DNA of 64,000 nt from the NCBI RefSeq assembly GCF_054482595.1, contig NZ_CM137008.1; one strand, given 5' to 3'. A program made the position numbers and the translations under genes. Shown here piece after piece: positions 1-48,819 of the stretch. The notes beneath the pieces were generated by a model that saw nothing but the letters and a program-made list of their open reading frames with translations, was not told the origin of the DNA and did no database searches. Numbering within the stretch: the first letter of the stretch is position 1; every line of letters begins with the position of its first letter.

Positions 1-9
1 CAGTTCTCA

Positions 10-210
10 ATGGCGAATAGAATTGGCGCAAGAAATCTTTTTATGTCCAGCTCAGAGTCTAACCCCCTTGATATGACCTATGCCGGAATCAGTAATACAA
101 GTGCTCCAGGATTTACCATTGGACAACTTAGTATTATGCCAATGTTAGGTATGACCCTTCCTGGGGAAAATGGCTGGCCATACGGCGATCAAATACTCCA
201 TAATGATTAG
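10..210 (+). CDS. Possible 3' portion of an unknown b-region CDS that may start before the window
   Basis: ORF of 66 aa beginning 9 nt from window edge; no recognisable motif. Confidence 0.2.
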   Translation: MANRIGARNLFMSSSESNPLDMTYAGISNTSAPGFTIGQLSIMPMLGMTLPGENGWPYGDQILHND

Positions 211-372
211 AAGGTTAAGTATTTTATATTGGATATATGGCTATTGTGCTGCCATGATTCTAACAAATTATGCTTAAGAGGTGGTGCAACTCCTCTCATA
301 CAAAAAATACGTAAAATCAGTAACGGCTGGAAATAATTCAATACATACACTCTCGAAAGTGCATCAGCCAAC

Positions 373-403
373 CGCAGCACGTCTTGCATACGGCGTGTCT
401 GCG
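373..403. terminator. Imperfect inverted repeat (hairpin) upstream of the 419-aa orphan gene
   Basis: ccgcagcacg ... cgtgtctgcgg read in sequence; related to the hairpin at 1957..1990. Confidence 0.4.
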
Positions 404-617
404 GCTCTACCATATCTCCTATGAGCAACGTGTTAGCAGAGCCAAGCCACAACTCTAATTTTAATACATAATGAATGATAATAATATTAAAAATTTTCTG
501 TGTAACTAATTTACTATATGGTTTCTGATAAGAATCATTGCAAAGATTAAACAACTTGTATTACATTGACAGTTAAGCAGTTAATTTTATCACCTCTAAA
601 ATATATCAGCATCTAGC

Positions 618-1877
618 ATGCAACCTATCAAAATGGAGATTTTTATGACTAAAAAACCATGGGAAAGAAGACTTAAAGATTTATCGCACTTGCTCAAATG
701 CTGCATTGATACATATTTTGACCCTGAATTATTCCGCTTGAATTTGAATCAATTCCTCCAAACTGCAAGAACAGTAACATTTATTATTCAAAAAAACAAA
801 AACCAGATTATAGGATATGACATTTGGTATAACAATAATGTTATTGAAAAATGGAAAAATGATCCATTAATGGCTTGGGCTAAAAATTCTCGCAATACGA
901 TAGAAAAACAAGGCGATTTAGAAATGTATAGCGAGGCAAAGGCTACTCTTATTTCATCTTACATTGAAGAAAATGACATTGAGTTTATTACAAATGAAAG
1001 TATGTTAAACATTGGTATAAAAAAGTTAGTCAGACTTGCACAAAAGAAATTACCTTCATATTTAACTGAATCATCTATTATTAAATCAGAAAGACGATGG
1101 GTCGCTAATACGCTAAAAGATTACGAATTATTGCATGCCTTAGCTATAATCTATGGCAGAATGTATAACTGCTGTAACTCTCTTGGCATACAAATAAACA
1201 ATCCAATGGGTGACGATGTGATTTCGCCAACATCATTCGACTCTTTATTTGATGAAGCCAGGAGAATAACTTATTTAAAATTAAAAGATTACTCCATAAG
1301 CAAATTGTCATTTAGCATGATACAATATGATAATAAAATAATTCCTGAAGATATTAAAGAGCGTCTAAAACTGGTAGATAAGCCTAAAAATATCACTTCG
1401 ACAGAAGAGTTAGTTGACTATACAGCCAAGCTTGCAGAAACGACTTTTTTAAAGGACGGTTATCACATTCAAACATTAATTTTTTATGATAAACAATTCC
1501 ATCCAATTGATTTAATCAATACAACATTTGAAGATCAAGCAGATAAATATATTTTTTGGCGTTATGCAGCTGACAGAGCCAAAATAATAAATGCCTATGG
1601 CTTCATTTGGATATCAGAGCTATGGCTCAGAAAAGCAAGCATCAACTCCAATAAACCAATACATACAATGCCAATTATAGATGAAAGACTTCAGGTAATT
1701 GGAATTGATTCAAATAATAATCAAAAATGTATTTCATGGAAAATAGTTAGAGAAAACAAAGAAAAAAAACCGACTTTAGAAATATCAACAGCAGACTCAA
1801 AACATGACGGAAAACCATATTTCATGCGTTCAGTCTTAAAAGCAATTGGCGGTGATGTAAACACTATGAACAATTGA
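618..1877 (+). CDS. Hypothetical protein, 419 aa, AT-rich b-region cargo (moron); no recognisable domain
   Basis: Long uninterrupted ORF with ATG start; markedly AT-rich codon usage unlike neighbouring tail genes; convergent with tfa. Confidence 0.7.
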   Translation: MQPIKMEIFMTKKPWERRLKDLSHLLKCCIDTYFDPELFRLNLNQFLQTARTVTFIIQKNKNQIIGYDIWYNNNVIEKWKNDPLMAWAKNSRNTIEKQGDLEMYSEAKATLISSYIEENDIEFITNESMLNIGIKKLVRLAQKKLPSYLTESSIIKSERRWVANTLKDYELLHALAIIYGRMYNCCNSLGIQINNPMGDDVISPTSFDSLFDEARRITYLKLKDYSISKLSFSMIQYDNKIIPEDIKERLKLVDKPKNITSTEELVDYTAKLAETTFLKDGYHIQTLIFYDKQFHPIDLINTTFEDQADKYIFWRYAADRAKIINAYGFIWISELWLRKASINSNKPIHTMPIIDERLQVIGIDSNNNQKCISWKIVRENKEKKPTLEISTADSKHDGKPYFMRSVLKAIGGDVNTMNN

Positions 1878-1956
1878 GTCATAGAACTTCCATTATTCTC
1901 CTGAAGATAATAATCGCCAAATAAACCAATACTCAGCTTTACAATATACTAACTAA

Positions 1957-1990
1957 CCGCAGAACGTTATTTCATACAACGTTTCTGCGG
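1957..1990. terminator. Hairpin between convergent 419-aa gene and tfa (likely bidirectional terminator)
   Basis: ccgcagaacgtt ... aacgtttctgcgg inverted repeat in the 128-bp intergenic gap. Confidence 0.5.
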
Positions 1991-2005
1991 CATATCACAA
2001 AACTA

Positions 2006-2590
2006 TTATTCCATAACAGGGATTGCAGGCCACTCAATATCAGGTGCTACTGATGTATCAACTCGGTTCAGCAATACCCGATATGTCTTCCATGCCGCCA
2101 GTAACAATATCTCCTCCTCCGTCGCAATATCCAAATCTACCGCATCCTGAAGCGGCGCAATATGCTCACTGGCTACCCGCATGAGGCTGTTTTTTGTTTC
2201 TTCCGCCTCCCGTATACGAAACTGTTTTTCTGCTTCTGCATCTTTCACCCAGGTTGTGCCGTTCCACTTCTGATATTCCCCATCCGGCGACAACCAGGTG
2301 ACATTTTCCGGTAATGAGCCGAGTTCAGAAATAAATAACGCGTCCCCTGATGCCACGTCATAAACTGTTTTACCCCGATGGTCTTCAACAAGATGCCACG
2401 ATGCCTCATCACTGTTGAAAACAGCCACGAAGCCAGCCGGAATATCTGGCGGTGCAATATCGGTACTGTTTGCTGGCAGACCTGTATGAGGCGGAATGTA
2501 TGCGTCACCTTCACCAATAAATTCATTAGTTCCGGCCAGCAGATTATAAATTGTTATGGTCCGTGGTTGTTCACTCATTCTGAATGCCAT
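2006..2590 (-). CDS. tfa: Tail fibre assembly protein Tfa (194 aa)
   Basis: 194-aa ORF directly downstream of stf with 1-nt overlap; length and sequence match remembered lambda orf-194. Confidence 0.85.
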
Positions 2591-5500
2591 TATGCAAGCC
2601 TCACAATATAGTTAAATGCGATGTTTTTGACGGTGTTTTCCGCGTTACCAGCAGCGTTAACGGTGATGGTGTGTCCGTGTGAGCCAATCGCAACGGAGTG
2701 CGTATGAGCACCAATACCGACAGTATGCGCGTGTGCACCTGCACTTGCAGCAGTACCTGACACCGGGTGGGTATGCGCTCCGGCTGACGATGTGCCAGTA
2801 CTCGAGCCTGCACGAGACGCACCTTTGAGGGCTTTATCGCCCTGCTCGGTATTGCCAGATGGGTAACAGGCAACCGTGTGTGTATGTGCCCCTGCAGAAG
2901 CAGCCGTACCACTGACACTATGGGTGTGCGCTCCGGTGTTATTCGTGGATTTAGTGCCGTAATCAAACGACGATGTGGTTTTCGTCCCCAAATCCGTACT
3001 GGATGCACTGGCACTGTGGGTATGCGATTTAATGCCGTCCTGTTCCTGAGATAATACGGCACGACCACTGGCGGGCTTGCCCTTAATCGTCCAGCCACGC
3101 ATATCAGGGATCACGCCTGACGGATAAGCGGCTGCAAGTTTCGGGTAGGCAGATTTGTCAAAAGTCTGCCCCTGCATCAGGGCATAGCCAGACGGAACGG
3201 TATCTGATGGCCACGGGATTGGTGCACCGACTGGATAAAACTCTGCAGGAGGATGAGCCGAGGTGTAAAGCTGCGCCCACGGCGACCAGTTTGCGTCGGT
3301 CGTATCCCGTCGTGAACGAATAAATGCCGGAGCATGAGCACCGCTTGTACCACCCCAGCCGATGAGTAACTCACCTTCGCCAACGGCTGTCATCCCTTTC
3401 AGGTGAATGATATTTCCATACGCTGTTGGATATCCGTTGTTATACACCTCGTATAACTCAAGACCTGTTGCCCCCTGCGTATTGTCTGTCAGCGCGGTTA
3501 CCCGACCTTTTGAAGCCAGATTAACTGATGATACTGCTGTTCCACCTGACGGTAACGCCCCGATCTCTGATGCCGTTGGCTTATTTCTGGAGTTATAGTC
3601 CCTTCGCCAGCCAGGTGAATAATATGTTCCGTGATTAATATAGGTAAACTGGGCGTTAGTTGTTCCACCACCAGTGGAGGTGGTCGGTGTGGTAATGCGG
3701 ATCGTCATCGCTGACTTTATCCCCATTACTTCAATGACAGCTCCGGCGAGATGAATATTACCGCAGTCAGTATCAGTAATGATTTTATTATTGCCATAAG
3801 ACCAGGAACCCTTGCACATCCAGTATGGATGGTTAAATGCTCCCTGAGAATCCAGCCACTCGATAAACTGTGCAGTCGTCCAGTTTCCTGTTGTTGTGCT
3901 TACTGACCCACCGAAGGCACGGCAGGCACCAATATTTTTCGTAAAGGTATCTTTGCCAGGGATATCCGCACCGTTCTGATCTTTCTGCAGACGTTTCTCA
4001 GCATTGTCATTGGCTGCTTTTACTGCCTTTGGCGTTGCCGCCAGCGTTTCAGACGTGCTGTTGGTCGCGCTGCTTAACTGGATTATCCCTTTCTGTGCTG
4101 TCGTTGCATCCTGTGCGGTGTATTTCCCGTTAGCCAGGTCATACGCGGCCTTAACGGCTTTTGGCGTTGCCGCCTGTGACTCGGAAGTGCTGTTGGTCGC
4201 ACTGCTGAGCTGTACTATCCCCTTTTTCGTCGTGCTCGCATCCTCAAGCGCCACGGCGGATGCAATATCCTCTGCACGTTTTGCCGCTGTCTCAGCGCGC
4301 GTTGCTGCAGATTCCGCCGTACTTTTGCTCTGAGCTGCTGCCGTCGCACTACCAGCTGCCTCTGTCGCCTTCGTGGATGCCGTCGTGGCGCTACCCTTCG
4401 CTGCTGACGCCTGTCTGGTCGCCTCATCTTTTGAAGCAGACGCCGATGATGCCGATGACGCTGCCGAACTGGCTGACGATGCGGCAGCCGTTTTTGAGGA
4501 TTCTGCACGGGTTTCCGACGCTTTCGCGTTCGTTTCGGATGTCTTCGCTGCGGAAGCTGACCTCGCTGCTGCGCTGGCCTGTACAGCGGCTTCGCCAGCA
4601 TTCGTTGTGGCTGTTGAAGCAGACGATGCAGCACTTTCTGCCGACTTTCCGGCAGCGGTGGCACTGGCTGAGGCCTGCCCGGCACTTGTTGACGCGGCAC
4701 TGGCAGATGATGCAGCCGCTGTTTTTGAGCCTGCCGCAGCTGAGGCACTCTGTCCCGCTGCCGTTTCAGAAGACCTGGCGTTCGTCTCGGACGTCTTTGC
4801 CGCCTTCGCGGAATTTCCTGCCGCCGTTGCCGAGGAAGCGGCACTACTGGCGCTTGATGATGCGTTCGTTTCTGATGATTTCGCTGCCTCTTTTGAGGCC
4901 GCCGCATCCCGGGCTGAGGTGGCAGCTTCTGACGCCTTTGTGGTCGCGGCGGATGCAGAAGTGGCTGCAGATTTTTGTGACGCTGCCGCATTCGTTTCTG
5001 ACGTTTTCGCCGCACCGGCACTGGTAGCTGCCGCGCTTTTTGAGGACTCTGCAGCAGCAGCACTTTTCGATGCTTCACTGGCCTTTGTTGATGCCGTTCC
5101 TGCGCTGGAAGTCGCTGACTGAGCCGACGAAGCGGCCTGTCCGGCTGACGTGCTGGCTGCACGTGCTGAATCTGCAGCATCAGTCGCATGGGTTGCCGCC
5201 TCACGGGCAGATGTGCTGGCATCACTGGCTGACTTCTTCGCGGCTGCCGTGTTCTGTGCCACCACGGACGCGTTACGCGCCACCTCTTCCACCATCAGTT
5301 CAAAACGTCGCAATGCCTCCGGACGGGCATCATCCTCCGTCATCGCACCGAGAAAATCATTCAGCGTACCGGGTTGGGAATCTTCATACACGGTGATGGT
5401 CCCGGCATGTGACGGCGGGAATCCTTCCACCAACAGAATAACGCTGTACTGACCGTACTCAACGTCCATGCTGTAACGCCCGGCTTCATCCGGATTTTCT

Positions 5501-5625
5501 GAGGCCAGCGTGTTCACCACCACCGTGGTGCTGTTACGTTTTGCTTTCAGCTGGATTGTGCAGTTCTGAACCGGTTTTCCTGTGCCGTCTTTCAGTACAC
5601 CTGAAATCTTTACTGCCATATTCAC
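2590..5625 (-). CDS. stf: Side tail fibre protein Stf (1011 aa) with long Ala/Ser/Thr-rich repeat region and C-terminal His-x-His repeats
   Basis: Position after lom; low-complexity A/S/T repeat block and repeated GAHTHxV motifs near C-terminus typical of lambda/T4 gp37-type fibres. Confidence 0.85.
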
Positions 5626-5683
5626 CCCACAAAAAAGCCCGCCTGAACCGGCGGGCTGTCATAACACTGTGTTACCTGGCTAA

Positions 5684-6283
5684 TCAGAATTTATAACCGA
5701 CACCCACGATGAAACCGTCAGTGCGCCAGTCGCCACTGCCGGAACCTTCATAAGCGACATCAATGGCCACCGATTCGGTCGGGTTAAACTGCACGCCAGC
5801 TCCCCACGCCAGAGACGTGTTGCTGTGGCGACCGTCATCACTTCCGGTCAGCACATCGTGCGTTTTCCCCTTGCTGTCGGTCACCTGCAGATAATCCCCG
5901 GAGAAGGTCGAAACACGGCTGTAAGCCACCCCCGCCATCGCATACGCGCTGAACCATTCATTCACGCGCACAGACGGCCCCGCCATCACGCTGAACCAGC
6001 GGTTACGCACGGAATCTTCATGCCAGCGGGTATCGCTGTAATGCGTTTTTTGTTCATCTTCTGCGTCGGCATAACTGAAAGACGTAATCAGCCCCAGCGT
6101 GTCCGTAAATTCATAACGGTATTTCACGTTAATCCCGTTCAGATTATCGCTGCCGGGTGCGTTCGTACGGGCATGAAGATACCCTGCGCTCAGTGTGGAC
6201 TGATGTTCAGACGCCCATGCAGGCGCACCGGATACGGCCAGACAGATGGCTGCGGAAAAAATGGCTGCACAAACTTTACGCAT
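5684..6283 (-). CDS. lom: Outer membrane protein Lom (Ail/Lom family)
   Basis: 199-aa ORF with signal peptide, beta-barrel-like sequence, position between J and stf as in lambda. Confidence 0.85.
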   Translation of the reverse strand: MRKVCAAIFSAAICLAVSGAPAWASEHQSTLSAGYLHARTNAPGSDNLNGINVKYRYEFTDTLGLITSFSYADAEDEQKTHYSDTRWHEDSVRNRWFSVMAGPSVRVNEWFSAYAMAGVAYSRVSTFSGDYLQVTDSKGKTHDVLTGSDDGRHSNTSLAWGAGVQFNPTESVAIDVAYEGSGSGDWRTDGFIVGVGYKF

Positions 6284-6352
6284 AATTACCTCTCGCTTTT
6301 CTGCAATAAAAAAGGCGCCATTTCTGGCGCCCGTATTGGGGTTATAAAAATT

Positions 6353-9300
6353 TCAACTGATACTGATACCGGATGCGGCTTTTTTCGTTACCGAGACCAT
6401 TAAATCACTGATCCATGTTCTGGGCTCTCCACTGCCGCTCGACTGAACTTCAAATGTTAATATTACATCTCCGTCCCCCACTGGCATATCAATGATATTG
6501 CTGTACACGACTGTTGTCCTTTTCGAACCACTAGTGGATTTGTCATAGATTACATTGCCATTTTTGCGCACAATTAATCTGCAGGTATCGTAGATATTAG
6601 CGCCATCATTTCTACTAAAATATGGTGGCGCACCGTACATGATTGGTTGAATTATAATCTGCCTGTCAAAGGCATGATCGTCCTTAATATGAACGGTAAG
6701 TGAACCCTGTGGGTATTCTCCGGGGTGCGGAAATCGATGCCCTGTCGTTTTTACAAAATCACCACGCACCTGGTTAGCATCAAGCATCCCCTTAATAGTA
6801 CAGCTCTCATTAATCGTGACGTTGTTGAGCGTCCCGGCGTTCGCATTCACACTGCCACTGATATCCGCATTTTTAGCAGTCAGCTTTCCGTCAGGTGTCA
6901 GGGAGAATGCCGGAGGATTGCCACCACTGGTAATCGTGGGAGCAATAAGGAACTTGATCAGCGCCTCATTAATAAACGTCTGTCCGCCCTGTGTGACCAG
7001 TGCAGGAGTGGTGTTACCATTCGCCGGGTTAATAAATGCCACCCGGTCTGCAGCCAGCAGCACCTGACTCTGCATGCCGTCGGGGGTGTTCTCAATACCG
7101 GCACCGATACCCGCAATATAAAGGCGTCCGTCCTGCATCTGCTGCAGCTTCACTGCCCACATGCTGTTCAGGTTATTATTTGTATCAACCTGAACCTTCT
7201 GTATCTGCTGGATCGCTGCACTCTGGTCTTCCAGTTTCTTATTGACGGTCTGTGTTATTTCATTGCTGACATCCGTTATGGACGTCCTGATTTCAGTCAG
7301 GTCAGGCGCAAGCTGACCGTTATCAATCTGCGTCCACAGCTCCTGAGCCAGATGGGTTTTCCCTATCTCTCCTTTGAAAAAATCCAGATAGCCGGACGCA
7401 TCATCACTCGGCTGACCAACAGCCTCCACAAATGCCGATTTGCCAACGGTGTTCACACTGCGGATATAAAAATAATAATCATGGCCCGGTTTGATATTGA
7501 TACTGGCAGCTATCCAGTACAGCGCCGTGCCAAGATAGCGGGCTGTGGTTTCAACCTGCCTGATATCCGCAATCCGCTTTTCCGAGAACCAGAATTCAAA
7601 CTGTACCGTCGGGTCATAAACGGCAAGATGCGGCGTGGCGGTTATCTGAAAATAGCCCGGCGTCAGCTCAATCCGCGACGGCGCTGCCGGTGCGGCAATC
7701 CGGAACGATACCGATGCCGGATCGCCCTGCTGCCCCCAGGCATTTGCCGCCCGGACTGTCAGCCTGTAATTTCCCAGCGCCAGTTGCCTGAAGCGGTATG
7801 TGGTTTCCGTCGTCCGGGCCGTGCTGACCAGCCGTTCACTGCCATCATCCGCAGCCACGGTCAGGCGAAGCAGGAAGTTCACGCCCTTCACCACCTTCGG
7901 CGTGTCCCAGCGCGCCAGCACCTGATATTCCCCGCTGTCTGCGGTGACTTCGGCGGTCAGGTGCTGCACCGCTGGCGGCGTGACACCATTCACCGTGCCG
8001 CTCTGGTCACCGTCAAAGTGCGCCCCGTTATCCACGATGGCCTCTTTTGCCGGTACATGCTGCACGGCGGTGATGGCATACGTGCCGTCGTCGTTCTCAC
8101 GGATACTCACACAGCGGAACAGGCGCTGGCGCAGCGTCGGCAGCTTCAGCCCCCACACGCTGTACTCGGCAACGCCGTCAGGAACCCGGCTCACTTTCAC
8201 CTTCACGCCGTCGGTGACGGACTGGACCTCCACGCTGACCGGATTCCCCTGTCCGTCAACCAGGCTTATCAGCGTGGTGCCGGAAGATGGCAGCGTGATT
8301 TCACGGTCGAGCGTCAGTGTCCGGGTCTGGCTGTTCACCGCCAGCACACGCCCGCCGATGCTGATCCCCGCATAGTCATCATCGCAGATTTCAATGACAT
8401 CGCCCGGTACATGGCGAAGCCCTTCTGCGCCCACGCTGAAATCCACGGTCTGCGTTTCCAGCAGCTCCGTTTTAATCAGCCACAGCCCGGCTCGGTGTGC
8501 CTGCCCCCGGCTGGTACAGCCAAAGGCGTCCATCTTCGTGACATTACGACCGTAACGGAGAATGGCCTGCGTATCTTCAACAAGCTCTGTCGCCGTCTCC
8601 CAGCCGTTATTCGGGTCAATCCAGTTCACCTCAACGGCATTATGGCGGTCCTTCAGGGCGCTGAAGCTGTAGCGGAACGGCGCGCCATCATCCGGCATCA
8701 CCACATTACTGCGGTTATAGGTCCACACCTTATCCGACGGTCGGTCCTGCACGAACGTCAGCGTCTGCCCGTTCCATACCGGCATACAGCGCATCGCCGA
8801 GCAGAAATCACTGAGAACATCCCACGCCTTACGCTGTGTGGTCAGGTAGGCATTACAGGTGATGCGCGGCTCCGTGCCACCAAAGCCATCCGGCACCGAC
8901 TGGTCGCAATTCTGGCCGATGACATACAGCGCCCATTTGTCCACATCCGCCGCACCGAGACGCTTCCCCATGCCGTAGCGCGGATGGGTCAGCATATCCC
9001 ACAGACACCAGGCCATGTTATTGCTGTATGCTGGCTTAAACGTTCCGTCCCAGATACCGCTGTATTGTCGCGTCTGCGGGTTATAGTTCGACGGCACCTG
9101 CAGAATGCGCCCGCGAAGATGATAATTACGACTCACCTGCTGGCTGCCGAACTGCTCCGAGTCCACCTGTACGCCAACCAGTGCCGTGTTCGGGTAGCAC
9201 TGTTTCACATCGATGATTTCGGTGTATGACGACCAGAGCGTTTTGTTCTGCAACTGGTCTGTGGTGCTGTCCGGTGTCATCCTGCGCATCCGGATATTGA

Positions 9301-9829
9301 ACGGGCGCGGCGGCAGGTTATCCACCACTACCGATGCCAGATACTGCGAGGTGGTTTTGCCCTTAATGGTGATGTCTTTTTCCGTCACCCAGCCACCGTT
9401 ACGTTGTATCTGAACCAGCAGGCGGACTTCCGATGGATTCCGGTCCCCTTTTGAGGTGGTTTCCACCAGAGCCTGCACACCGAAGGTAAAACGCAGACGG
9501 TCGATGTTTGCCGACGTGATGGTCCGGATGATCGGCGTGTCGTATTTCACTTCCGTACCCAGCACCGTCTCGGAGCCGGAGGATTCAAACCCCTCAGGCG
9601 GTGTCTGCTCCTGCTCACCTGCCCGGAACACCACCGTGACGCCGGAGATGTTGGTATTCCCCTCACTGTCCAGCACTGGCGTACTGTTCAGCAGCACGCT
9701 TTTTAATCCATCCACCGGACCTTCAATCGGCCCTTCGCTGATGGCATCGATCACACTCAGCAACTGCGTGGACTTCAGGTTGTCCTTCGCTTCGCGCGGG
9801 GTATGCCCCTTACTGCTGCCTTTACCCAT
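6353..9829 (-). CDS. J: Tail tip host-specificity protein J
   Basis: 1158-aa ORF; N-terminus [26 protein letters not shown] matches remembered lambda J. Confidence 0.95.
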
Positions 9830-9889
9830 TCGTCATGCTCCATATACGACAAAACCGCCCGCAGGCGGTTTCACATAAAACGTTTTGCA

Positions 9890-10561
9890 TCAGCGACCAA
9901 TCACCACAACCTGACCACCATCCCCTTCGTCTGCCGTGCTGATCTCCTGAGAAACCACGCGTGACCCCACGCGCATTTCACCGTACAGAACCGGCAGAAC
10001 ATTGCCCTGGGCAACCATGTTATCCAGTGAGGAGAAATAGGTGTTCTGTTTGCCGTTATCCGTTGTCTGTGTACGGGGAGTTCTGGCTTTCGGTGCCAGC
10101 ATCTGCGCCACACCACCGAGCACCATACTGGCACCGAGAGAAAACAGGATGCCGGTCATACCACCGGCCCCAATGGCTGCCCCCCATGCTGCAAGGGTGG
10201 CTCCGGCGGTAAAGAATGATCCGGCAATGGCGGCAGCCCCCAGGACAATCTGGAATACGCCACCTGACTTGGCCCCGGCGACTCTGGGAACAATATGAAT
10301 CACAGCGCCATCAGGCAGAGTCTCATGTAACTGCGCCGTTAACCCGGACGTGCTGACGTCCCGCCCGGCAATCCGTACCTGATACCAGCCGTCGCTCAGT
10401 TTCTGACGAAACACCGGGAGCTGTGTGGCCAGTGCGCGGATGGCTTCAGCCCCCGTTTTCACACGAAGGTCGATGCGGCGGCCAAATCGTTGCAAATCCC
10501 CGTAAAGGCAGATGCGCGCCATGCCCGGTGACGCCAGAGGGAGTGTGTGCGTCGCTGCCAT
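9890..10561 (-). CDS. I: Tail assembly protein I
   Basis: 223-aa ORF overlapping K by about 100 nt as in lambda. Confidence 0.9.
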   Translation of the reverse strand: MAATHTLPLASPGMARICLYGDLQRFGRRIDLRVKTGAEAIRALATQLPVFRQKLSDGWYQVRIAGRDVSTSGLTAQLHETLPDGAVIHIVPRVAGAKSGGVFQIVLGAAAIAGSFFTAGATLAAWGAAIGAGGMTGILFSLGASMVLGGVAQMLAPKARTPRTQTTDNGKQNTYFSSLDNMVAQGNVLPVLYGEMRVGSRVVSQEISTADEGDGGQVVVIGR

Positions 10562-11202
10562 TTGTCGGTATACCTCTCTCGTTTGCTCAGTTGTTCAGGA
10601 ATATGGTGCAGCAGCTCGCCATCACCACAGTAAATGGCGGCATGATTCGGCACCGATGAACCAAAACAGCACAGCAGCACATCGCCCGGTTGTGCTGATG
10701 ACAACGGCACCTGATACAGCCCTGTGGCCTCCAGATTATCCAGATAGAGATTCTGACCGTGACGCCACCAGTCATCCTCGCGATGAAAATCCGGCATCTC
10801 AATCCCCGCCAGATGATAAGCATCCCGGAACAGCGTGTAACAGTCCGTCACCCCGTGCTCAAAGCGCCGCCCGGTGAGATGCGGCACACAGCGGAACTTA
10901 TGAATCGTCCCCCGGCAGACCAGCCACCACGGCAAATCACTCTGCACCTGCAGCCGCCTGTCGGCCTCACTCAGCCAGGGCAGACCGCCGGGGTGGCTGT
11001 GGACCAGCGCCACAATCTCACCCTGCATTTCTGCCTGCAGCCAGTCTTCCGGCGACATACGGAAATACGCCTCCGGCTCACCGGAGATATTCACGCAGGG
11101 GAAATATCTCTCCCCCTCCGGCGTGCTTACCACGAAGCCGCACGACTCCGCTGGCGCACATCGCCGGGCGTGCGCCAGAATCGCTGATTCTGTCTGTGTC
11201 AT
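10459..11202 (-). CDS. K: Tail assembly protein K (JAB/MPN plus NlpC/P60-like)
   Basis: 247-aa ORF between L and I; lambda-like order. Confidence 0.85.
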   Translation of the reverse strand: MTQTESAILAHARRCAPAESCGFVVSTPEGERYFPCVNISGEPEAYFRMSPEDWLQAEMQGEIVALVHSHPGGLPWLSEADRRLQVQSDLPWWLVCRGTIHKFRCVPHLTGRRFEHGVTDCYTLFRDAYHLAGIEMPDFHREDDWWRHGQNLYLDNLEATGLYQVPLSSAQPGDVLLCCFGSSVPNHAAIYCGDGELLHHIPEQLSKRERYTDKWQRRTHSLWRHRAWRASAFTGICNDLAAASTFV

Positions 11203-11207
11203 GGTAT

Positions 11208-11906
11208 TTACTGCGAAAGTTTGTTAATGGAAAGGAAGCCGCCAAAGTTGCCGACGTTATTGCGGAACTTACAACCGCTCAGGCATTTGCTGCATTTATC
11301 CTTCGTGATATCGGACGTTGGCTGGTCATATTCATCCGCGACCGCCGGACCTTGATAACCGCACTCATCGCCGCGATAGGTCCAGGTGCAGGTGTTGGCC
11401 AGCATGATACGTCCCGGAAAAACAGCGCCGTCCGTTTCCGTCGGCGTGGACAGTACAAAAGAGGCACTCACCGCGCTCAGTTCGCTGCACTGCTCAATGC
11501 GCCAGCGGCTGATCACCTCCTGCTCCGGATCGGCGTCACTGTTTCCGTTGACGAAGTTCACCGCATCCAGAAAACGGGCGTAAACCTTACGCCGGACCAC
11601 CGTTCCGCCGACCAGACTCTGCAGATCTTCCGCCATCCCGGTGACCATACCGTACAGGTTAGAAACCGTCAGCGTGGGGCGCGTACTGGTGCCTTTGCCA
11701 TTCAGTTCAAAACCACTCCCCTGAATGGGATACGGCTGATACTGTCGCCCCTGCCAGGTGACCGGCTCACCTTTTTCGTTCTGCTCATTACAGAAAAAAT
11801 AACGTTCTCCACCGACCTCTGTCAGATCGATTTCCCAGAGCACCACGCTGGCCGACTGCTCCGCACGGGTGCATTCATTCAGTGTTTCCTGCCGGATATC
11901 CTGCAT
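11208..11906 (-). CDS. L: Minor tail protein L
   Basis: 232-aa ORF; lambda order and length. Confidence 0.9.
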   Translation of the reverse strand: MQDIRQETLNECTRAEQSASVVLWEIDLTEVGGERYFFCNEQNEKGEPVTWQGRQYQPYPIQGSGFELNGKGTSTRPTLTVSNLYGMVTGMAEDLQSLVGGTVVRRKVYARFLDAVNFVNGNSDADPEQEVISRWRIEQCSELSAVSASFVLSTPTETDGAVFPGRIMLANTCTWTYRGDECGYQGPAVADEYDQPTSDITKDKCSKCLSGCKFRNNVGNFGGFLSINKLSQ

Positions 11907-12235
11907 CAGTTCACCACCTGTTCAAACTCTGCGCTGAACTCAACACGCAACATACGGACCTGCGACGACCATTTTGCGCAGGTCACCTTTATCTGCCTGT
12001 AACCATAAGGCGGCGTCCACAGAAAGGCCTTCCAGCCCCCGTGCTCAGCCAGAAACGACTCCAGCGCCGTGGCCTCTTCACGGGAGACAGACAGCGTCAC
12101 GCTGTACGTTTTCAGGTCGGCATTCAGCCCGGCAGGCGCTCGCTGGGAATAGCCATCACCAAAGCGCACTTTCCTGACGGAAGGGGCCGAAGCCACATCC
12201 ATACCGGGTTTCACTTTCCAGCGGAAGGTCTTCAT
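11906..12235 (-). CDS. M: Minor tail protein M
   Basis: 109-aa ORF; lambda order and length. Confidence 0.9.
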   Translation of the reverse strand: MKTFRWKVKPGMDVASAPSVRKVRFGDGYSQRAPAGLNADLKTYSVTLSVSREEATALESFLAEHGGWKAFLWTPPYGYRQIKVTCAKWSSQVRMLRVEFSAEFEQVVN

Positions 12236-20917: not shown

Positions 20918-24598
<3,681 letters not shown>

Positions 24599-24624
<26 letters not shown>

Positions 24625-25144
24625 TCAGCAACCCCGGTATCAGTTCATCCAGCGCGGCTGCTTTGTTCATGGCTTTGATGATATCCCGTTTCAGGAAATC
24701 AACATGTCGGTTTTCCAGTTCCGGAAAACGCCGCTGCACCGACAGGGGGATCCCGTCGAGAATACTGGCAATTTCACCTGCGATCCGCGACAGCACGAAA
24801 GTACAGAATGCGGTTTCCACCACTTCAGCGGAGTCTCTGGCATTTTTCAGCTCCTGTGCGTCGGCCTGCGCACGCGTAAGTCGATGGCGTTCGTACTCAA
24901 TAGTCCCTGGCTGGAGATCTGTCTCGCTGGCCTGCCGCAGTTCTTCAACTTCCCGGCGCAGCTTTTCGTTCTCAATTTCAGCATCCCTTTCGGCATACCA
25001 TTTTATGACGGCGGCAGAGTCATAAAGCACCTCATTACCCTTGCCACCGCCTCGCAGAACGGGCATTCCCTGTTCCTGCCAGTTCTGAATGGTACGGATA
25101 CTCGCACCGAAAATGTCAGCCAGCTGCTTTTTGTTGACTTCCAT
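24599..25144 (-). CDS. nu1: Terminase small subunit Nu1
   Basis: 181-aa ORF MEVNKKQLADIFGASIRTIQNWQEQGMP (winged HTH), lambda length. Confidence 0.95.
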
Positions 25145-25345
25145 TGTTCATTCCACGGACAAAAACAGAGAAAGGAAACGACAGAGGCCAAAAAGCTCGC
25201 TTTCAGCACCTGTCGTTTCCTTTCTTTTCAGAGGGTATTTTAAATAAAAACATTAAGTTATGACGAAGAAGAACGGAAACGCCTTAAACCGGAAAATTTT
25301 CATAAATAGCGAAAACCCGCGAGGTCGCCGCCCCGTAACCTGTCG
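25145..25345. other. cos: cos region (cosB next to Nu1, cosN, cosQ side)
   Basis: Reverse complement of remembered lambda left-end sequence read directly; 12-nt cohesive end GGGCGGCGACCT present as aggtcgccgccc at 25322..25333. Confidence 0.85.
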
Positions 25346-25532
25346 GATCGCCGGAAAGGACCCGCAAAATGATAATAATTATCATCTACATGTCACAACG
25401 TGCATCTACGCAATCAAACCACGTCAAATAATCAATTATGACGCAGATATCGTATTAATTGATCTGCATCAACTTAACGTAAAAACAACTTCAGACAATA
25501 CAAATCAGCGACACTGAATACGGGACAACCTC

Positions 25533-25766
25533 ATGTCAACGAAGAACAGAACCCGCAGAACAACAACCCGCAACATCCGCTTTCCTAACCAAATGATTGA
25601 ACAAATTAACATCGCTCTTGATCAAAAAGGGTCCGGGAATTTCTCAGCCTGGGTCATTGAAGCCTGCCGCCGGAGACTGTGCTCAGAAAAAAGAGTTTCT
25701 CCTGAAGCAAACAAAGAAAAGAGTGACATTACTGAATTGCTCAGAAAACAGATCAGACCAGATTGA
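25533..25766 (+). CDS. Small ribbon-helix-helix-like protein (possibly DUF3950-like), cos-proximal cargo
   Basis: 77-aa ORF; motif RNIRFPNQMIEQINIAL resembles RHH beta-strand/helix; opposite strand to late genes. Confidence 0.5.
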   Translation: MSTKNRTRRTTTRNIRFPNQMIEQINIALDQKGSGNFSAWVIEACRRRLCSEKRVSPEANKEKSDITELLRKQIRPD

Positions 25767-25807
25767 AGCAATTTAGATAATCGTGCAGACTACGCCCCTC
25801 ATATCAC

Positions 25808-26233
25808 ATGGAAGGTACTACAATGGCTCAGGTTGCCATTTTTAAACAAATATTCGATAAAGTGCGAAATAATTTAAACTATCACTGGTTTTATTCTGAA
25901 CTAAAACGTCACAATGTCTCACATTACATTTACTATTTAGCTACAGAGAATATTCATCTTGTTCTTGAAAACGATAATACGGTTTTAATAAAAGGACAGG
26001 GTAAGGTTGTAAATGTAAGATTTTCAAAAAATAAATGCCTTATAGAAGCCACCTTAAAAGGATTCAAATCAGGAGAGTTATCATTTTACGAATACAGGAA
26101 AAATCTTGCTACAGCAGGGGTTTTCAGATGGATTACAAATATCCACGAAAACAAAAGGTATTACTATACCTTTGATAATTCATTACTCTTTACTGAGAAC
26201 ATTCAGAACACTACACAAATATTTCCGCACTAA
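25808..26233 (+). CDS. Hypothetical protein, possibly DUF1398/YbcV-like, cos-proximal cargo
   Basis: 141-aa AT-rich ORF; family assignment from memory only, unverified. Confidence 0.5.
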
Positions 26234-44710: not shown

Positions 44711-44929
44711 ATGTACTTGACACTTCAGGAGTGGAACGCACGCCAGCGACGCCCAAGAAGCCTTGAAACAGTTCGTCGATGGGTACGCGAGTGCAGGATA
44801 TTCCCTCCTCCGGTTAAGGATGGAAGAGAGTATCTGTTCCACGAATCAGCGGTAAAGGTTGACTTAAATCGACCAGTAACAGGTAGCCTTTTGAAGAGGA
44901 TCAGAAATGGGAAGAAGGCGAAGTCATGA
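44711..44929 (+). CDS. xis: Excisionase Xis
   Basis: 72-aa ORF MYLTLQEWNARQRRPRSLETVRRWVRECRIFPPPV matches lambda Xis; 23-nt overlap with int. Confidence 0.95.
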   Translation: MYLTLQEWNARQRRPRSLETVRRWVRECRIFPPPVKDGREYLFHESAVKVDLNRPVTGSLLKRIRNGKKAKS

Positions 44930-45980
44930 GCGCCGGGATTTACCCCCTAACCTTTATATAAGAAACAATGGATATTACTGCTACAGGGACCCAAGGACGG
45001 GTAAAGAGTTTGGATTAGGCCGAGACAGGAGGATAGCAATCACTGAAGCAATACAGGCCAATATTGAGTTACTCTCAGACAGCGGACGCAAATCACTGAT
45101 AGACAGAATTAAAGGCGGTGACGCAATCACTCTTCATGTGTGGCTTGACCGATATGAAACAATCCTCACCGAAAGGGGGATCAGGCCGAAAACTCTACTC
45201 GACTACGCCAGCAAAATCAGGGCAATCCGAAGAAAATTGCCGGACAAACCGCTCACTGACATATCAACGAAAGAAGTGGCAGCAATGCTAAACACCTACG
45301 TAGCAGAAGGTAAAGCAGCTTCCGCAAAATTAATCAGGTCAACCCTTGTTGACGTTTTTCGTGAAGCAATAGCCGAGGGGCATGTGGCAACGAATCCGGT
45401 AACAGCAACCCGTACAGCAAAGTCAGAAGTAAGGCGCTCAAGGCTGACAGCTAATGAGTATGTCGAGATTTACCATGCAGCCGAACCTCTCCCTATCTGG
45501 CTAAGGCTGGCGATGGATTTGGCCGTCGTTACAGGGCAGAGAGTCGGCGATTTGTGCAGAATGAAATGGTCAGACATAAACGACAACCATCTTCACATTA
45601 AACAGAGTAAAACAGGGGCTAAACTCGCCATTCCGCTAACGCTAACGATTGACGCGCTCAATATCTCATTGGCTGATACACTACAGAAATGCAGGGAGGC
45701 CAGCAGCAGTGAAACTATAATCGCATCAAAGCATCACGATCCGCTTTCCCCGAAAACAGTATCAAAGTATTTTACAAAGGCGAGAAATGCATCTGGCCTC
45801 TCATTTGATGGAAACCCGCCAACATTCCATGAACTGCGTAGCCTGTCAGCGAGGCTATACCGGAACCAGATTGGCGATAAGTTTGCTCAACGTCTTCTCG
45901 GGCATAAATCAGATTCAATGGCGGCGCGGTATAGGGACAGCCGTGGACGGGAATGGGACAAAATTGAAATCGACAAATGA
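44907..45980 (+). CDS. int: Tyrosine integrase Int (lambda-type; N-terminal arm-binding domain lambda-identical, core-binding region divergent)
   Basis: 357-aa ORF; N-terminal ~55 aa identical to remembered lambda Int, divergence after residue ~56, conserved catalytic C-terminus (HELRSL ... LLGH ... Y). Confidence 0.95.
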   Translation: MGRRRSHERRDLPPNLYIRNNGYYCYRDPRTGKEFGLGRDRRIAITEAIQANIELLSDSGRKSLIDRIKGGDAITLHVWLDRYETILTERGIRPKTLLDYASKIRAIRRKLPDKPLTDISTKEVAAMLNTYVAEGKAASAKLIRSTLVDVFREAIAEGHVATNPVTATRTAKSEVRRSRLTANEYVEIYHAAEPLPIWLRLAMDLAVVTGQRVGDLCRMKWSDINDNHLHIKQSKTGAKLAIPLTLTIDALNISLADTLQKCREASSSETIIASKHHDPLSPKTVSKYFTKARNASGLSFDGNPPTFHELRSLSARLYRNQIGDKFAQRLLGHKSDSMAARYRDSRGREWDKIEIDK

Positions 45981-46074
45981 TTTTATTTTGACTAATAATG
46001 ACCTACTTACATTAATTTACTGATAATTAAAGAGATTTTAAATATACAACTTATTCACCTTAAGTGCACCGACC
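45981..46074. other. Int-proximal prophage/chromosome junction (attL-type site) and torS upstream region
   Basis: 94-bp AT-rich segment between int stop and torS start; core sequence cannot be defined without the other junction. Confidence 0.5.
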
Positions 46075-48819
46075 GTGAATTTAACCCTGACCCGAAGACT
46101 CTGGATGGGCTTTGCCCTGATGGCACTGTTAACCCTGACCAGTACCCTGGTGGGATGGTACAACCTGCGCTTTATCAGCCAGGTGGAAAAAGACAATACT
46201 CAGGCATTGATTCCTACCATGAATATGGCGCGCCAGTTGAGCGAAGCCAGCGCCTGGGAACTTTTCGCCGCGCAGAACCTGACCAGTGCCGATAACGAAA
46301 AGATGTGGCAGGCGCAGGGGCGAATGCTCACCGCACAAAGCCTGAAGATTAATGCGTTGCTGCAAGCGTTACGGGAACAAGGTTTTGATACCACCGCTAT
46401 TGAACAACAGGAGCAGGAGATCTCCCGTTCGTTACGTCAGCAAGGGGAACTGGTGGGGCAGCGTTTGCAACTGCGCCAGCAACAACAGCGACTCAGTCAG
46501 CAGATAGTCGCTGCCGCCGATGAGATCGCACGCCTGGCGCAAGGTCAGGCGAATAATGCGACAACTTCCGCTGGAGCGACCCAGGCCGGGATTTACGATT
46601 TGATCGAACAAGATCAGCGTCAGGCTGCTGAAAGTGCACTCGACCGGCTGATTGATATCGATCTTGAGTATGTTAACCAGATGAATGAACTGCGCCTTAG
46701 CGCCCTGCGGGTGCAGCAAATGGTGATGAATCTGGGGCTGGAACAGATCCAGAAAAATGCGCCAACGCTGGAAAGGCAGCTCAATAATGCGGTGAAAATT
46801 CTGCAACGTCGGCAAATACGCATTGAAGATCCGGGAGTTCGTGCGCAGGTCGCAACAACGTTAACTACCGTTAGCCAATATAGCGATCTGTTGGCGCTGT
46901 TCCAGCAGGACAGTGAAATCAGCAATCACCTGCAAACTCTCGCCCAAAATAATATCGCCCAGTTCGCGCAGTTTAGTAGCGAAGTCAGTCAGCTGGTCGA
47001 CACCATTGAGCTGCGCAATCAGCATGGACTGGCGCATCTGGAAAAAGCCAGTGCACGCGGGCAATACAGCCTGTTATTGCTGGGGATGGTTTCACTTTGC
47101 GCACTGATTCTGATCCTCTGGCGCGTGGTTTATCGCTCAGTCACGCGTCCACTTGCCGAACAAACGCAGGCGCTGCAACGGCTGCTGGACGGTGATATTG
47201 ACTCCCCTTTTCCGGAAACCGCTGGCGTACGGGAGCTGGATACCATCGGGCGGCTGATGGATGCGTTTCGCAGCAGTGTTCATGCACTGAATCGCCACCG
47301 CGAACAGCTGGCGGCGCAGGTCAAAGCACGTACAGCTGAATTGCAGGAACTGGTGATAGAACACCGACAGGCACGGGCGGAAGCAGAAAAAGCCAGCCAG
47401 GCAAAATCGGCGTTTCTGGCGGCGATGAGCCATGAGATCCGCACACCGCTGTACGGTATTCTCGGCACCGCACAGCTACTGGCAGATAACCCCACACTTA
47501 ACGCCCAGCGTGATGATTTGCGGGCAATTACTGACTCTGGTGAATCGTTGCTGACCATCCTCAACGATATTCTCGATTATTCGGCTATCGAAGCAGGTGG
47601 CAAGAATGTTTCGGTCAGCGATGAGCCCTTTGAACCGCGCCCGCTGCTGGAAAGTACCCTGCAATTAATGAGCGGACGGGTGAAAGGTCGCCCGATTCGC
47701 CTGGCAACGGCAATTGCCGATGATGTACCGAGCGCGTTAATGGGCGATCCGCGGCGTATTCGTCAGGTCATTACCAACCTGTTGAGCAACGCCCTGCGTT
47801 TTACTGACGAAGGGCAGATCGTTTTACGTAGCCGTACTGATGGTGAGCAATGGCTGGTCGAAGTGGAAGACAGCGGCTGCGGTATTGATCCCGCGAAACT
47901 GGCAGAAATCTTCCAGCCATTTATTCAGGTAAGTGGCAAACGCGGCGGCACCGGGCTGGGGCTGACTATCAGTAGCCGTCTGGCCCAGGCGATGGGCGGC
48001 GAACTGAGCGCCACCAGCACGCTGGAGGTTGGAAGCTGTTTTTGTTTACGCTTGCCGTTACGTGTTGCCACAGCACCCGCGCCAAAAACAGCCAATCAGG
48101 CGGTGCGTCTGGACGGTTTACGTTTGCTGTTAATTGAAGATAACCCGCTAACCCAGCGAATTACCGTTGAGATGCTGAACACCAGTGGTGCGCAGGTTGT
48201 TGCTATTGGCAATGCCGCGCAGGCTTTAGAGACACTGCAAAATAGCGAACCGTTTGCTGCCGCACTGGTGGATTTTGATCTGCCGGATATCGACGGCATT
48301 ACCCTTGCCCGGCAACTGGCACAGCAATATCCGTCGCTGGTTTTGATTGGCTTTAGCGCTCATGTCATTGACGAAACGCTGCGCCAGCGTACCAGTTCAC
48401 TATTTCGCGGGATTATCCCTAAACCGGTGCCGCGTGAAGTGCTCGGTCAGTTACTGGCGCACTATCTCCACCTGCAAGTCAATAACGATCTACCACTTGA
48501 TGTATCGCAACTCAATGAAGATGCTCAATTAATGGGGACGGAGAAGATCCACGAATGGCTGGCATTATTTAAACAACATGCCCTGCCGCTTCTCGATGAA
48601 ATCGACATTGCCCGCGCCAGCCAGGACAGCGAGAAAATAAAGCGTGCCGCGCATCAGCTAAAAAGCAGTTGCTCGAGTCTGGGAATGCGTAGCGCCAGTC
48701 AGCTATGCGCACAACTGGAGCAGCAGCCATTATCTGCCCCCCTTCCACACGAAGAAATTACACGCAGTGTTGCCGCTCTGGAAGCATGGTTGAATAAGAA
48801 AGACCTGAACGCGATTTGA
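46075..48819 (+). CDS. torS: TMAO sensor histidine kinase TorS
   Basis: 914-aa [24 protein letters not shown]; HisKA/HATPase/receiver/HPt architecture. Confidence 0.95.

Follow-up and report, generated by a model that had tools for sequence, protein, structure and literature searches.

The DNA analysed here, which we call the window, is a stretch of 64,000 nucleotides from contig NZ_CM137008.1 (RefSeq assembly GCF_054482595.1). Its first 617 bp belong to the accessory ('b') region of a lambda-like prophage and form the inner end of that region. The prophage is located between torS and torT and measures about 48.4 kb, a size that depends on a left flank taken from close relatives. The window opens inside a gene, and this is followed by an AT-rich stretch with a hairpin, by ea47 and, after a second copy of the hairpin, by the tail fibre assembly gene tfa. 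The gene cut by the window edge encodes a protein of 299 amino acids (aa) and belongs to a large unannotated family with a proteasome-like fold which is found in the cargo sites of mobile elements. Most of what we describe below is ordinary lambdoid mosaicism. The cut gene is the part that deserves attention, being proteasome-like and recognised by no annotation library. We are fairly confident that the region is best explained by three things taken together: the anatomy of a cargo region, a boundary at the hairpin, and a proteasome-like gene with the function proposed below.

The reading frame of the cut gene is already open at base 1 and closes with TAG, so window positions 1-210 are coding and the methionine codon at position 10 falls inside a longer frame. 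Four complete E. coli records contain an annotated coding sequence whose 3' end matches these 210 bp at 100% identity, and the first 690 nt of the gene lie outside the window, on its left. A preliminary description of this DNA had suggested that the open reading frame (ORF) at 10..210 could be the 3' end of another cargo gene, and this proved correct, since the full gene in the identical relatives encodes 299 aa. A 66-codon ORF would by itself lack significance, and it could be supposed that this one arose by chance in a prophage that ends just to the left of the window. We found no other support for a chance ORF and consider it extremely improbable: from base 1 the frame runs 230 codons further in all the identical relatives, the protein family is kept across genera at 43-85% identity, and the attR site lies 2.33 kb further left in the same relatives.

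RefSeq annotations differ in the start of the gene, giving either 345 or 299 aa. The family comprises 26 clusters, almost all of them of 296-307 aa, and all begin MT(A/S)I..W; an AAGGGGG ribosome-binding site stands ahead of the ATG that gives 299 aa. The family settles the start at 299 aa and the window thus holds residues 231-299. RefSeq protein WP_233337191.1 (345 aa; 11173-11310 in the related locus L001) seems to be 46 codons too long, while WP_104769329.1 uses the 299-aa start.

The DNA between the cut gene and ea47 had been described as a very AT-rich 400-bp spacer of unknown function containing the first hairpin. The hairpin is present and the DNA is AT-rich overall (34.4% G+C in 211-617 vs 50.9% in the whole window), but only the two outer parts are very AT-rich (Table 1). 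The spacer is a composite of an import flank (211-277), a conserved segment (278-405) and the leader of the ea47 cassette (406-644). Homology to lambda starts abruptly at position 278 and 1-277 is not lambda sequence. Positions 211-277 travel along with the imported module into an unrelated IntS prophage. From 278 to 2000 the window is 97.9% identical to lambda 24289-22563 read backwards, a stretch that contains ea47, its upstream sequence and the end of tfa. The 128-bp segment at 278-405 shares 97-98% identity with lambda, and its identity with Salmonella phage SPF_0923 is 87.6%. For most of the spacer (278-644) the label 'unknown function' did not hold, as this is the DNA that ordinarily precedes ea47 in lambda, with an identity of 97-98%.

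A minus-strand ORF at 207-554 and the small plus-strand ORFs of the spacer are supported by neither conservation nor homology. All of these ORFs were rejected as genes on this ground; a 69-aa ORF there is annotated in the HK629 record only. An Rfam scan of the region gave no RNA family, and two sub-threshold matches to IS009 were discarded.

The ea47 product matches PHROG 19262 (E 8.6e-292, profile positions 1-410), and PF26900 (Phage_lambda_Ea47) is recorded on an identical protein. The gene is 97.9% identical to lambda ea47 at the nucleotide level and has a G+C content of 31% vs 51% in the window. The lambda interaction map gives Ea47 as 'unk' (PMC3224144). This ORF had been taken to start at 618 (419 aa), but a start at 645 (410 aa), as in lambda, is more likely. 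There is no ribosome-binding site at 618; a GGAG is found 8 nt upstream of the ATG at 645, the PHROG profile spans residues 10-419 of the 419-aa ORF, and 645 is also the RefSeq start. With ea47 starting at 645, the non-coding gap is 434 bp. A promoter-like site is found in the ea47 leader (TTGACA at 566-571 and TATCAC at 588-593), and in the record of phage HK629 its depositors placed a promoter at the position that corresponds to window 566-593. Our scans speak neither for nor against a promoter here: a consensus scan did not list the site, and the region has no more promoter-like sites than shuffling would give. It had also been suggested that a partner gene for the 419-aa protein was incompletely seen. 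There is indeed more cargo to the left, but we found no evidence that Ea47 requires a partner; ea47 forms a cassette of its own between the duplicated hairpins, is missing from otherwise identical relatives, and has different neighbours in lambda (ea31 and ea59).

Table 1. Features of the left end of the window and of the integration module
Feature	Position	Strand	G+C	Description and basis
299-aa cargo gene, 3' part	1..210	+		Last 69 codons (residues 231-299) and stop
3' flank of imported cargo module	211..277		28%	AT-rich, without lambda homology
Conserved 128-bp segment	278..405	+		Ends in hairpin 1; lambda 24289-24162
Middle part of spacer	278-440		46%	
Hairpin 1	372..404	+		12-bp stem with one bulge
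ea47 cassette leader	406..644	+	about 26%	AT-rich
Right part of spacer	441-617		26%	
ea47	645..1877	+		Lambda Ea47 homologue, 410 aa
Hairpin 2	1957..1990	+		Direct-repeat copy between convergent ea47 and tfa
tfa	2006..2590	-		Tail fibre assembly protein; first structural gene right of the cargo; ORF list and relatives' annotation
HK022-type integrase gene	44907..45980	+		Translated comparison with HK022 Int (357 aa and stop), 346 positions match
attL core TTCACCT	46054..46060			Junction of phage and torS-side chromosome; alignment of HK022 attP, attL and attR
torS	46075-48819			

Cassette boundaries and the limits of the prophage

The hairpin pattern occurs twice in the window vs 0.00 times expected. 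The two copies make up the repeat families D5 and D20, with a spacing of 1585-1586 nt, and the hairpin reads CCGCAGNACGT...CGTNTCTGCGG. Hairpin 1 folds with -20.7 kcal/mol (z-score -3.1), a value reached by one of 200 shuffles, and hairpin 2 folds with -15.5 kcal/mol (z-score -5.7). We compared six copies, two from the window, two from lambda, one from the related locus L031 and one from SPF_0923. All 12 stem pairs are kept in the six copies and two of the pairs show compensatory changes.

In three relatives (L031, SPF_0923 and NADC1036) ea47 is missing and the hairpin is present as a single copy. In L031 the 299-aa gene is followed by the same spacer, by the hairpin (11056-11100) and by TTTTTCTTTTT, which directly adjoins the end of tfa. 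In SPF_0923 (2590-2635 of locus L036) the order is sitBCD cargo, 128-bp segment, hairpin and tfa. In NADC1036 (locus L034, hairpin at about 6310-6344), base 404 is the exact point where the likeness to the window's prophage stops, and this is followed by TTTTAT and then pinE. In L031 the homology likewise ends at window position 404. Several unrelated elements, then, diverge exactly at the hairpin. The 128-bp segment normally shuts off the cargo from tfa, and its stem-loop resembles that of a terminator. Since the relatives without ea47 have one hairpin abutting tfa or pinE, the hairpin marks a cassette boundary, and its duplication is accounted for if ea47 was inserted or if it was lost by recombination between the repeats. 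The sitBCD genes of SPF_0923 (L036 1-2430) encode a manganese/iron transporter and occupy the same cargo position, directly to the left of the 128-bp segment and the hairpin.

Two roles can be proposed for the hairpin. It would be a transcription stop or an RNA-end element between convergent units and, as a short conserved repeat, it would serve as a joint for homologous recombination when cargo cassettes are swapped. The hairpin probably stops or processes transcripts, and it probably is a recombination joint for cassette exchange as well. The first of these roles is weakened by two findings, as neither window copy is followed by a T-run and a terminator scan of the window found no terminator. 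The single-copy hairpins of L031 and NADC1036 are followed by TTTTTCTTTTT and by TTTTAT, respectively. We considered and rejected integron attC sites and repetitive extragenic palindromic elements, since nothing but a simple stem speaks for them and there are only two copies in 64 kb. Cassettes bounded by the hairpin are an example, at the level of sequence, of cargo exchange between lambdoid phages.

The torS end of the prophage lies within the window. The integrase gene and the P' arm are 96.1% identical to HK022 at the DNA level, and homology to HK022 stops at the attL core. The preliminary description had stated that the att site distal to int was missing from the window and, as it turned out, only attL was found, between int and torS. 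The HK022-type integrase defines the att site to be expected to the left of the window. Over window 1-2000 a match of 100% is seen with four complete records (EC5502, CREC-2, 4FM and the plasmid pSM107_MCR). In the three chromosomes among these the sequence continues outward from the window with the rest of the cut ORF, a gap of 481 bp and an ORF of 200 aa. Further out there are about 370 bp with 88.7% identity to lambda 27708-27328 (the att P arm and sib), the att core and torT. By alignment with HK022 attP and with the attL of the window, the attR core TTCACCT lies at L001 9670-9676, about 2,330 bp to the left of window base 1. The plasmid-borne copy parts from the chromosomal copies exactly at the attR core. 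From torT rightwards, the order in the relatives is attR, P arm and sib, 200-aa ORF, 299-aa ORF, hairpin 1, ea47, hairpin 2 and tfa. The exact 299-aa protein was called on 23 contigs; among the eight places shown, torT is on the left in all five chromosomal places that reach the host flank, and ea47 followed by tfa is on the right in all but one.

The view that the prophage extends beyond the left edge of the window is therefore borne out, with about 2.33 kb more in all those relatives that match window 1-2000 at 100%. A search leftward for the repeat of the att core and for the torT side finds an HK022-type attR core beside torT in these relatives. In them the prophage does not end within a few hundred bp and without more cargo; the 2.33 kb hold the 200-aa ORF and the remainder of the 299-aa ORF, and the b region was, as supposed, only partly seen in the window, a second cargo ORF being found further left in the relatives. 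Int, the shared core, the P and P' arms and the flanks all appear to fit an HK022-type prophage between torS and torT, with torS read inside the window and torT and the attR side taken from the relatives. Homology to lambda is found at L001 9697-10070 and again from window 278 on, with none between. An imported segment of 2.2 kb, with the 200-aa and 299-aa ORFs on it, sits where lambda has ea59 and ea31 (lambda 27328-24289). The prophage, on this evidence, is one of about 48.4 kb that ends next to torT and whose cargo is a chain of swappable cassettes joined at the hairpin.

One point weighs against this reconstruction. The window's own genome was not recovered, and the 2.33-kb left flank is drawn from close relatives, the best of which matches at 99.2%. 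The closest matches over window 2000-12000 are 99.2% and 98.3% identical. Exact identity to EC5502 fails beyond window 3226, and window 14112-64000 is 99.3% identical to it, so the window comes from a different strain. None of eight further loci was identical to the window beyond base 5690.

The plasmid pSM107_MCR (L006, NZ_CP130669.1, from about 9660-9690) is an mcr plasmid with nearly the same prophage (99.2% identity over window 2000-12000). The prophage is found at a secondary site, TTATTCACATAAAG, beside a truncated thermonuclease gene, and the flank contains type IV pilus and shufflon genes. This insertion means that a 48-kb phage rides a conjugative resistance plasmid.

To the right of the cargo, further tail genes (stf, lom and J) are found on the minus strand. 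The side tail fibre gene (2590-5625, minus strand) has many Ala/Ser repeats. Its product has 1011 aa here, counted from the GTG start, and 972, 1009, 1023 and 1118 aa in near-identical prophages. Most mismatches to the closest relatives are located in this gene and in lom.

Predicted fold of the 299-aa protein

We read the 299-aa protein, on the basis of its predicted structure, as a proteasome-beta/HslV-like N-terminal nucleophile (Ntn) hydrolase of the T1 type that has no propeptide. The AlphaFold2 model (predicted local distance difference test score, pLDDT, 81; predicted template modelling score, pTM, 0.82) has the alpha-beta-beta-alpha sandwich of a proteasome subunit. In structural comparison the model scored 19.5 with proteasome beta subunits (191 residues aligned), 17.5 with Anbu, 16.3 with HslV, 16.1 with M. 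tuberculosis PrcB and 14.4 with BPH; other Ntn hydrolases scored about 11. In a Foldseek search against predicted viral structures, the matches were phage proteins of the HslV and proteasome-like kinds, with 10-14% identity.

When 1.84 billion representatives were searched with a profile, 805 clusters were found, 104 of them below 1e-30 and nearly all of 265-300 aa, and nearly all of the 150 best members align from the first residue. In 40 diverse members, M1, W7, W17, D21, K37, G182, G227 and G228 are invariant and the glycines of the FAG motif (G63 and G68) are nearly so. Residue 2, always right after Met1, is Thr in 39 of these members and Ser in the remaining one. Asp21 and Lys37 are 16 residues apart, the same spacing as for Asp17 and Lys33 of the proteasome. 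The register given by hhalign places D21 on D17, K37 on K33 and FAGG on FAGG, in a weak alignment (1% probability, E 0.047) with four proteasome/HslV reference sequences. A C-terminal extension of about 50 residues beyond the core makes up most of the part within the window.

A methionine that precedes threonine is removed by methionine aminopeptidase. Removal of the initiator Met would expose Thr2 as the N-terminal nucleophile and, as there is no propeptide, this step alone would be enough. Asp21 and Lys37 would complete the catalytic triad with Thr2. The protein is most likely, judging by the model, an active threonine-type protease or amidase of the lysogen.

Several sequence-based results do not favour this assignment. 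Pfam, NCBIfam, PADLOC and PHROGs gave no usable match for the 299-aa protein, and a Pfam scan of 40 family members found nothing relevant, with one marginal match to the unrelated DUF5125. Searches of PDB sequences yielded chance matches only, whether the query was the protein itself or the family profile. Proteasome sequence profiles such as Pfam PF00227 do not recognise the family, and the hhalign link between the 299-aa profile and proteasomes, at the values given above, is insignificant.

The same fold could also belong to a dead scaffold, or to a ligase or transpeptidase like connectase. At the position of the proteasome GSG motif the family appears to have LGD (alignment A3), as might be expected if the protein were not a protease. 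However, Thr/Ser2, Asp21 and Lys37 are kept in all 40 diverse members, beta subunits outscore alpha subunits and connectase scores far lower. We think a role other than that of a protease or amidase improbable.

Neighbourhoods and possible roles

Homologues of the 299-aa gene are found in several kinds of element. In a Serratia lambdoid prophage, the homologue separates a cI-like repressor gene from recombination genes and a RelA/SpoT-domain gene. In a Providencia P2-like prophage it lies between ogr copies, beside gpD. It comes after CbtA/CbeA in a Citrobacter island, where it adjoins an integrase gene and a Psu-encoding element, and after a TraC-like gene on an integrative and conjugative element (ICE). 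A Photobacterium island has an integrase gene, an HNH gene and a gene for an Mrr-type nuclease around it, and on metagenome contigs its neighbours are SMODS, resolvase and KAP NTPase genes. The family gene stands alone in all the contexts examined, in a mobile or defence-type neighbourhood, and in these contexts no conserved neighbour or partner unfoldase was seen. The E. coli module is rare: it was found in 6 out of 5,426 complete genomes, and all of 50,697 phage records lack it.

The RelA/SpoT-domain protein of Serratia (L008/L009 4330-5421) has 363 aa and is encoded one small ORF away from the homologue, in a cargo spot of the immunity region. It may be a toxic small alarmone synthetase.

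Solo occurrence at prophage, satellite, ICE and defence-island sites suggests a role in defence, since genes that guard a lysogen against other phages are typically placed in this way. The 299-aa protein would then shield the lysogen from other phages by cleaving a phage or a host protein. That it protects its host from other phages is the possibility which we prefer, and we put it forward tentatively. It is more doubtful that the whole set of propeptide-less threonine hydrolases, about 800 clusters at 50% identity, are single-gene anti-phage effectors that act by abortive infection or exclusion. If they are, a proteasome-type protease would be used directly as a bacterial immune effector. Two negative results tell against a role in defence: the known defence models of PADLOC-DB v2.0 matched neither the 299-aa protein nor Ea47, and no relevant paper came up when the literature was searched for a part of proteasome-like, HslV or threonine-protease proteins in defence against phages.

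Alternatively, the proteasome-like protein may serve the phage, as a counter-defence or host-takeover protease that would break down immunity or regulatory proteins of the host during induction or infection. In a free lambda-type genome the leftward early transcript reads the b region. In line with service to the phage, one homologue is located beside conjugation genes on an ICE, the Foldseek matches include proteins of virulent phage genomes, and the phage-encoded proteasome homologues PPH and AAH are known from both lytic and temperate phages (PMC8665760). On the other side, several homologues have no phage around them and are next to Mrr, HNH, SMODS or KAP NTPase genes, the module is absent from all the sequenced phage records counted above, and in the prophage the att split parts the region from pL. 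We regard service to the phage as unlikely. Were the protein an immune or a counter-immune protease, a function would be at hand for one of the many orphan bacterial proteasome homologues, and the system, a single gene in E. coli, would be easy to test.

The 200-aa ORF to the left of the 299-aa gene, across the 481-bp gap, encodes a membrane anchor and a four-helix bundle. Pfam, PADLOC, PHROGs and NCBIfam gave nothing usable for it, the PADLOC search yielding only a weak match to the membrane segment of ZorB (E 0.002). Homologues are found at 85-92% identity in Serratia, Cronobacter and Dickeya and at 97% nucleotide identity in E. coli TL20. The gene is followed in Serratia by a 261-aa ORF and an AAA_15/21 pair, in Cronobacter by a DUF4238 protein gene next to icd, and in E. 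coli TL20 by an IS3 fragment and a 445-aa ORF. This cassette of about 800 bp (L014-L018 and L033) is strongly kept, at 85-97%, with a different downstream gene each time.

The 200-aa and 299-aa ORFs could together form one two-gene system, in which a membrane sensor or anchor is paired with a protease effector. The two genes occur together in NADC1036, in an unrelated IntS/argW prophage between intS and pinE, where the unit of 2.49 kb (L001 9915-12404) is 99% identical, and they have the same strand and the same order in every E. coli copy. Such pairing is nevertheless unlikely. The 299-aa homologues of Serratia, Providencia, Citrobacter, Photobacterium, the ICE and the metagenome contigs come without the 200-aa gene, and the 200-aa gene has different downstream genes in Serratia, Cronobacter and E. 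coli TL20. DNA homology to these loci stops 3-45 bp from the 200-aa stop codon, and the gap of 481 bp separates the two genes. We consider a two-gene system less likely than two adjacent cassettes.

Comparison with known systems

Morons, a concept of Hendrix and colleagues, are cargo cassettes of lambdoid phages that are autonomous in that each has a promoter and a terminator of its own. The cargo units described here are likewise discrete, differ in composition from their surroundings, lie between conserved phage genes, are bounded by a stem-loop and are present or absent among otherwise identical phages. They differ in that the boundary hairpin is duplicated around ea47 and, in the window, is without the T-run of an intrinsic terminator, and their promoters are predicted only.

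Proteasome-like Ntn hydrolases, some of them from phages, are already known, and we file the 299-aa protein as a further member. In comparison with the T1 proteins of MEROPS (proteasome beta, HslV, Anbu and BPH), its family is longer (270-300 aa vs 140-240 aa) and has the invariant residues W7 and W17 and the C-terminal extension of about 50 residues. By bioinformatic means, Fuchs, Alva and Lupas (2021) defined 22 new families of proteasome homologues, including DPH and the phage-associated PPH and AAH; RPC and DGH are proteobacterial families with extra C-terminal domains, DGH appearing to be the same as GPH, and several of the new homologues may not form rings (PMC8665760). None of these families is known to have a particular function. 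Unlike PPH and RPC, the 299-aa protein has both helix H1 and helix H2, and the presence of H2 in the model makes an assignment to RPC or PPH unlikely. Three representative accessions from the subfamilies of Fuchs et al. (WP_152342571.1, WP_074989469.1 and WP_140207863) are not among the accessions of ten clusters of our family.

The closest likeness in position is to the b region of lambda (tfa, ea47, ea31, ea59 and attP; lambda 22.5-27.7 kb), which has the same position and orientation. Here ea47, the 370 bp upstream of it and both hairpins are 97-98% identical to lambda, and the att-proximal P arm and sib are 88.7% identical. In contrast, lambda ea31 (annotated as an HNH endonuclease) and ea59 (annotated as an AAA ATPase), which occupy lambda 24289-27328, are replaced here by the unrelated 2.2-kb segment, and HK022, not lambda, is the type to which the integrase and att site belong. 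The integration module of HK022 (Int, Xis and attP) is matched in Int, in both att arms, in the core and in insertion between torS and torT, whereas the rest of the prophage, including J, lom, stf, tfa and ea47, is lambda-like instead.

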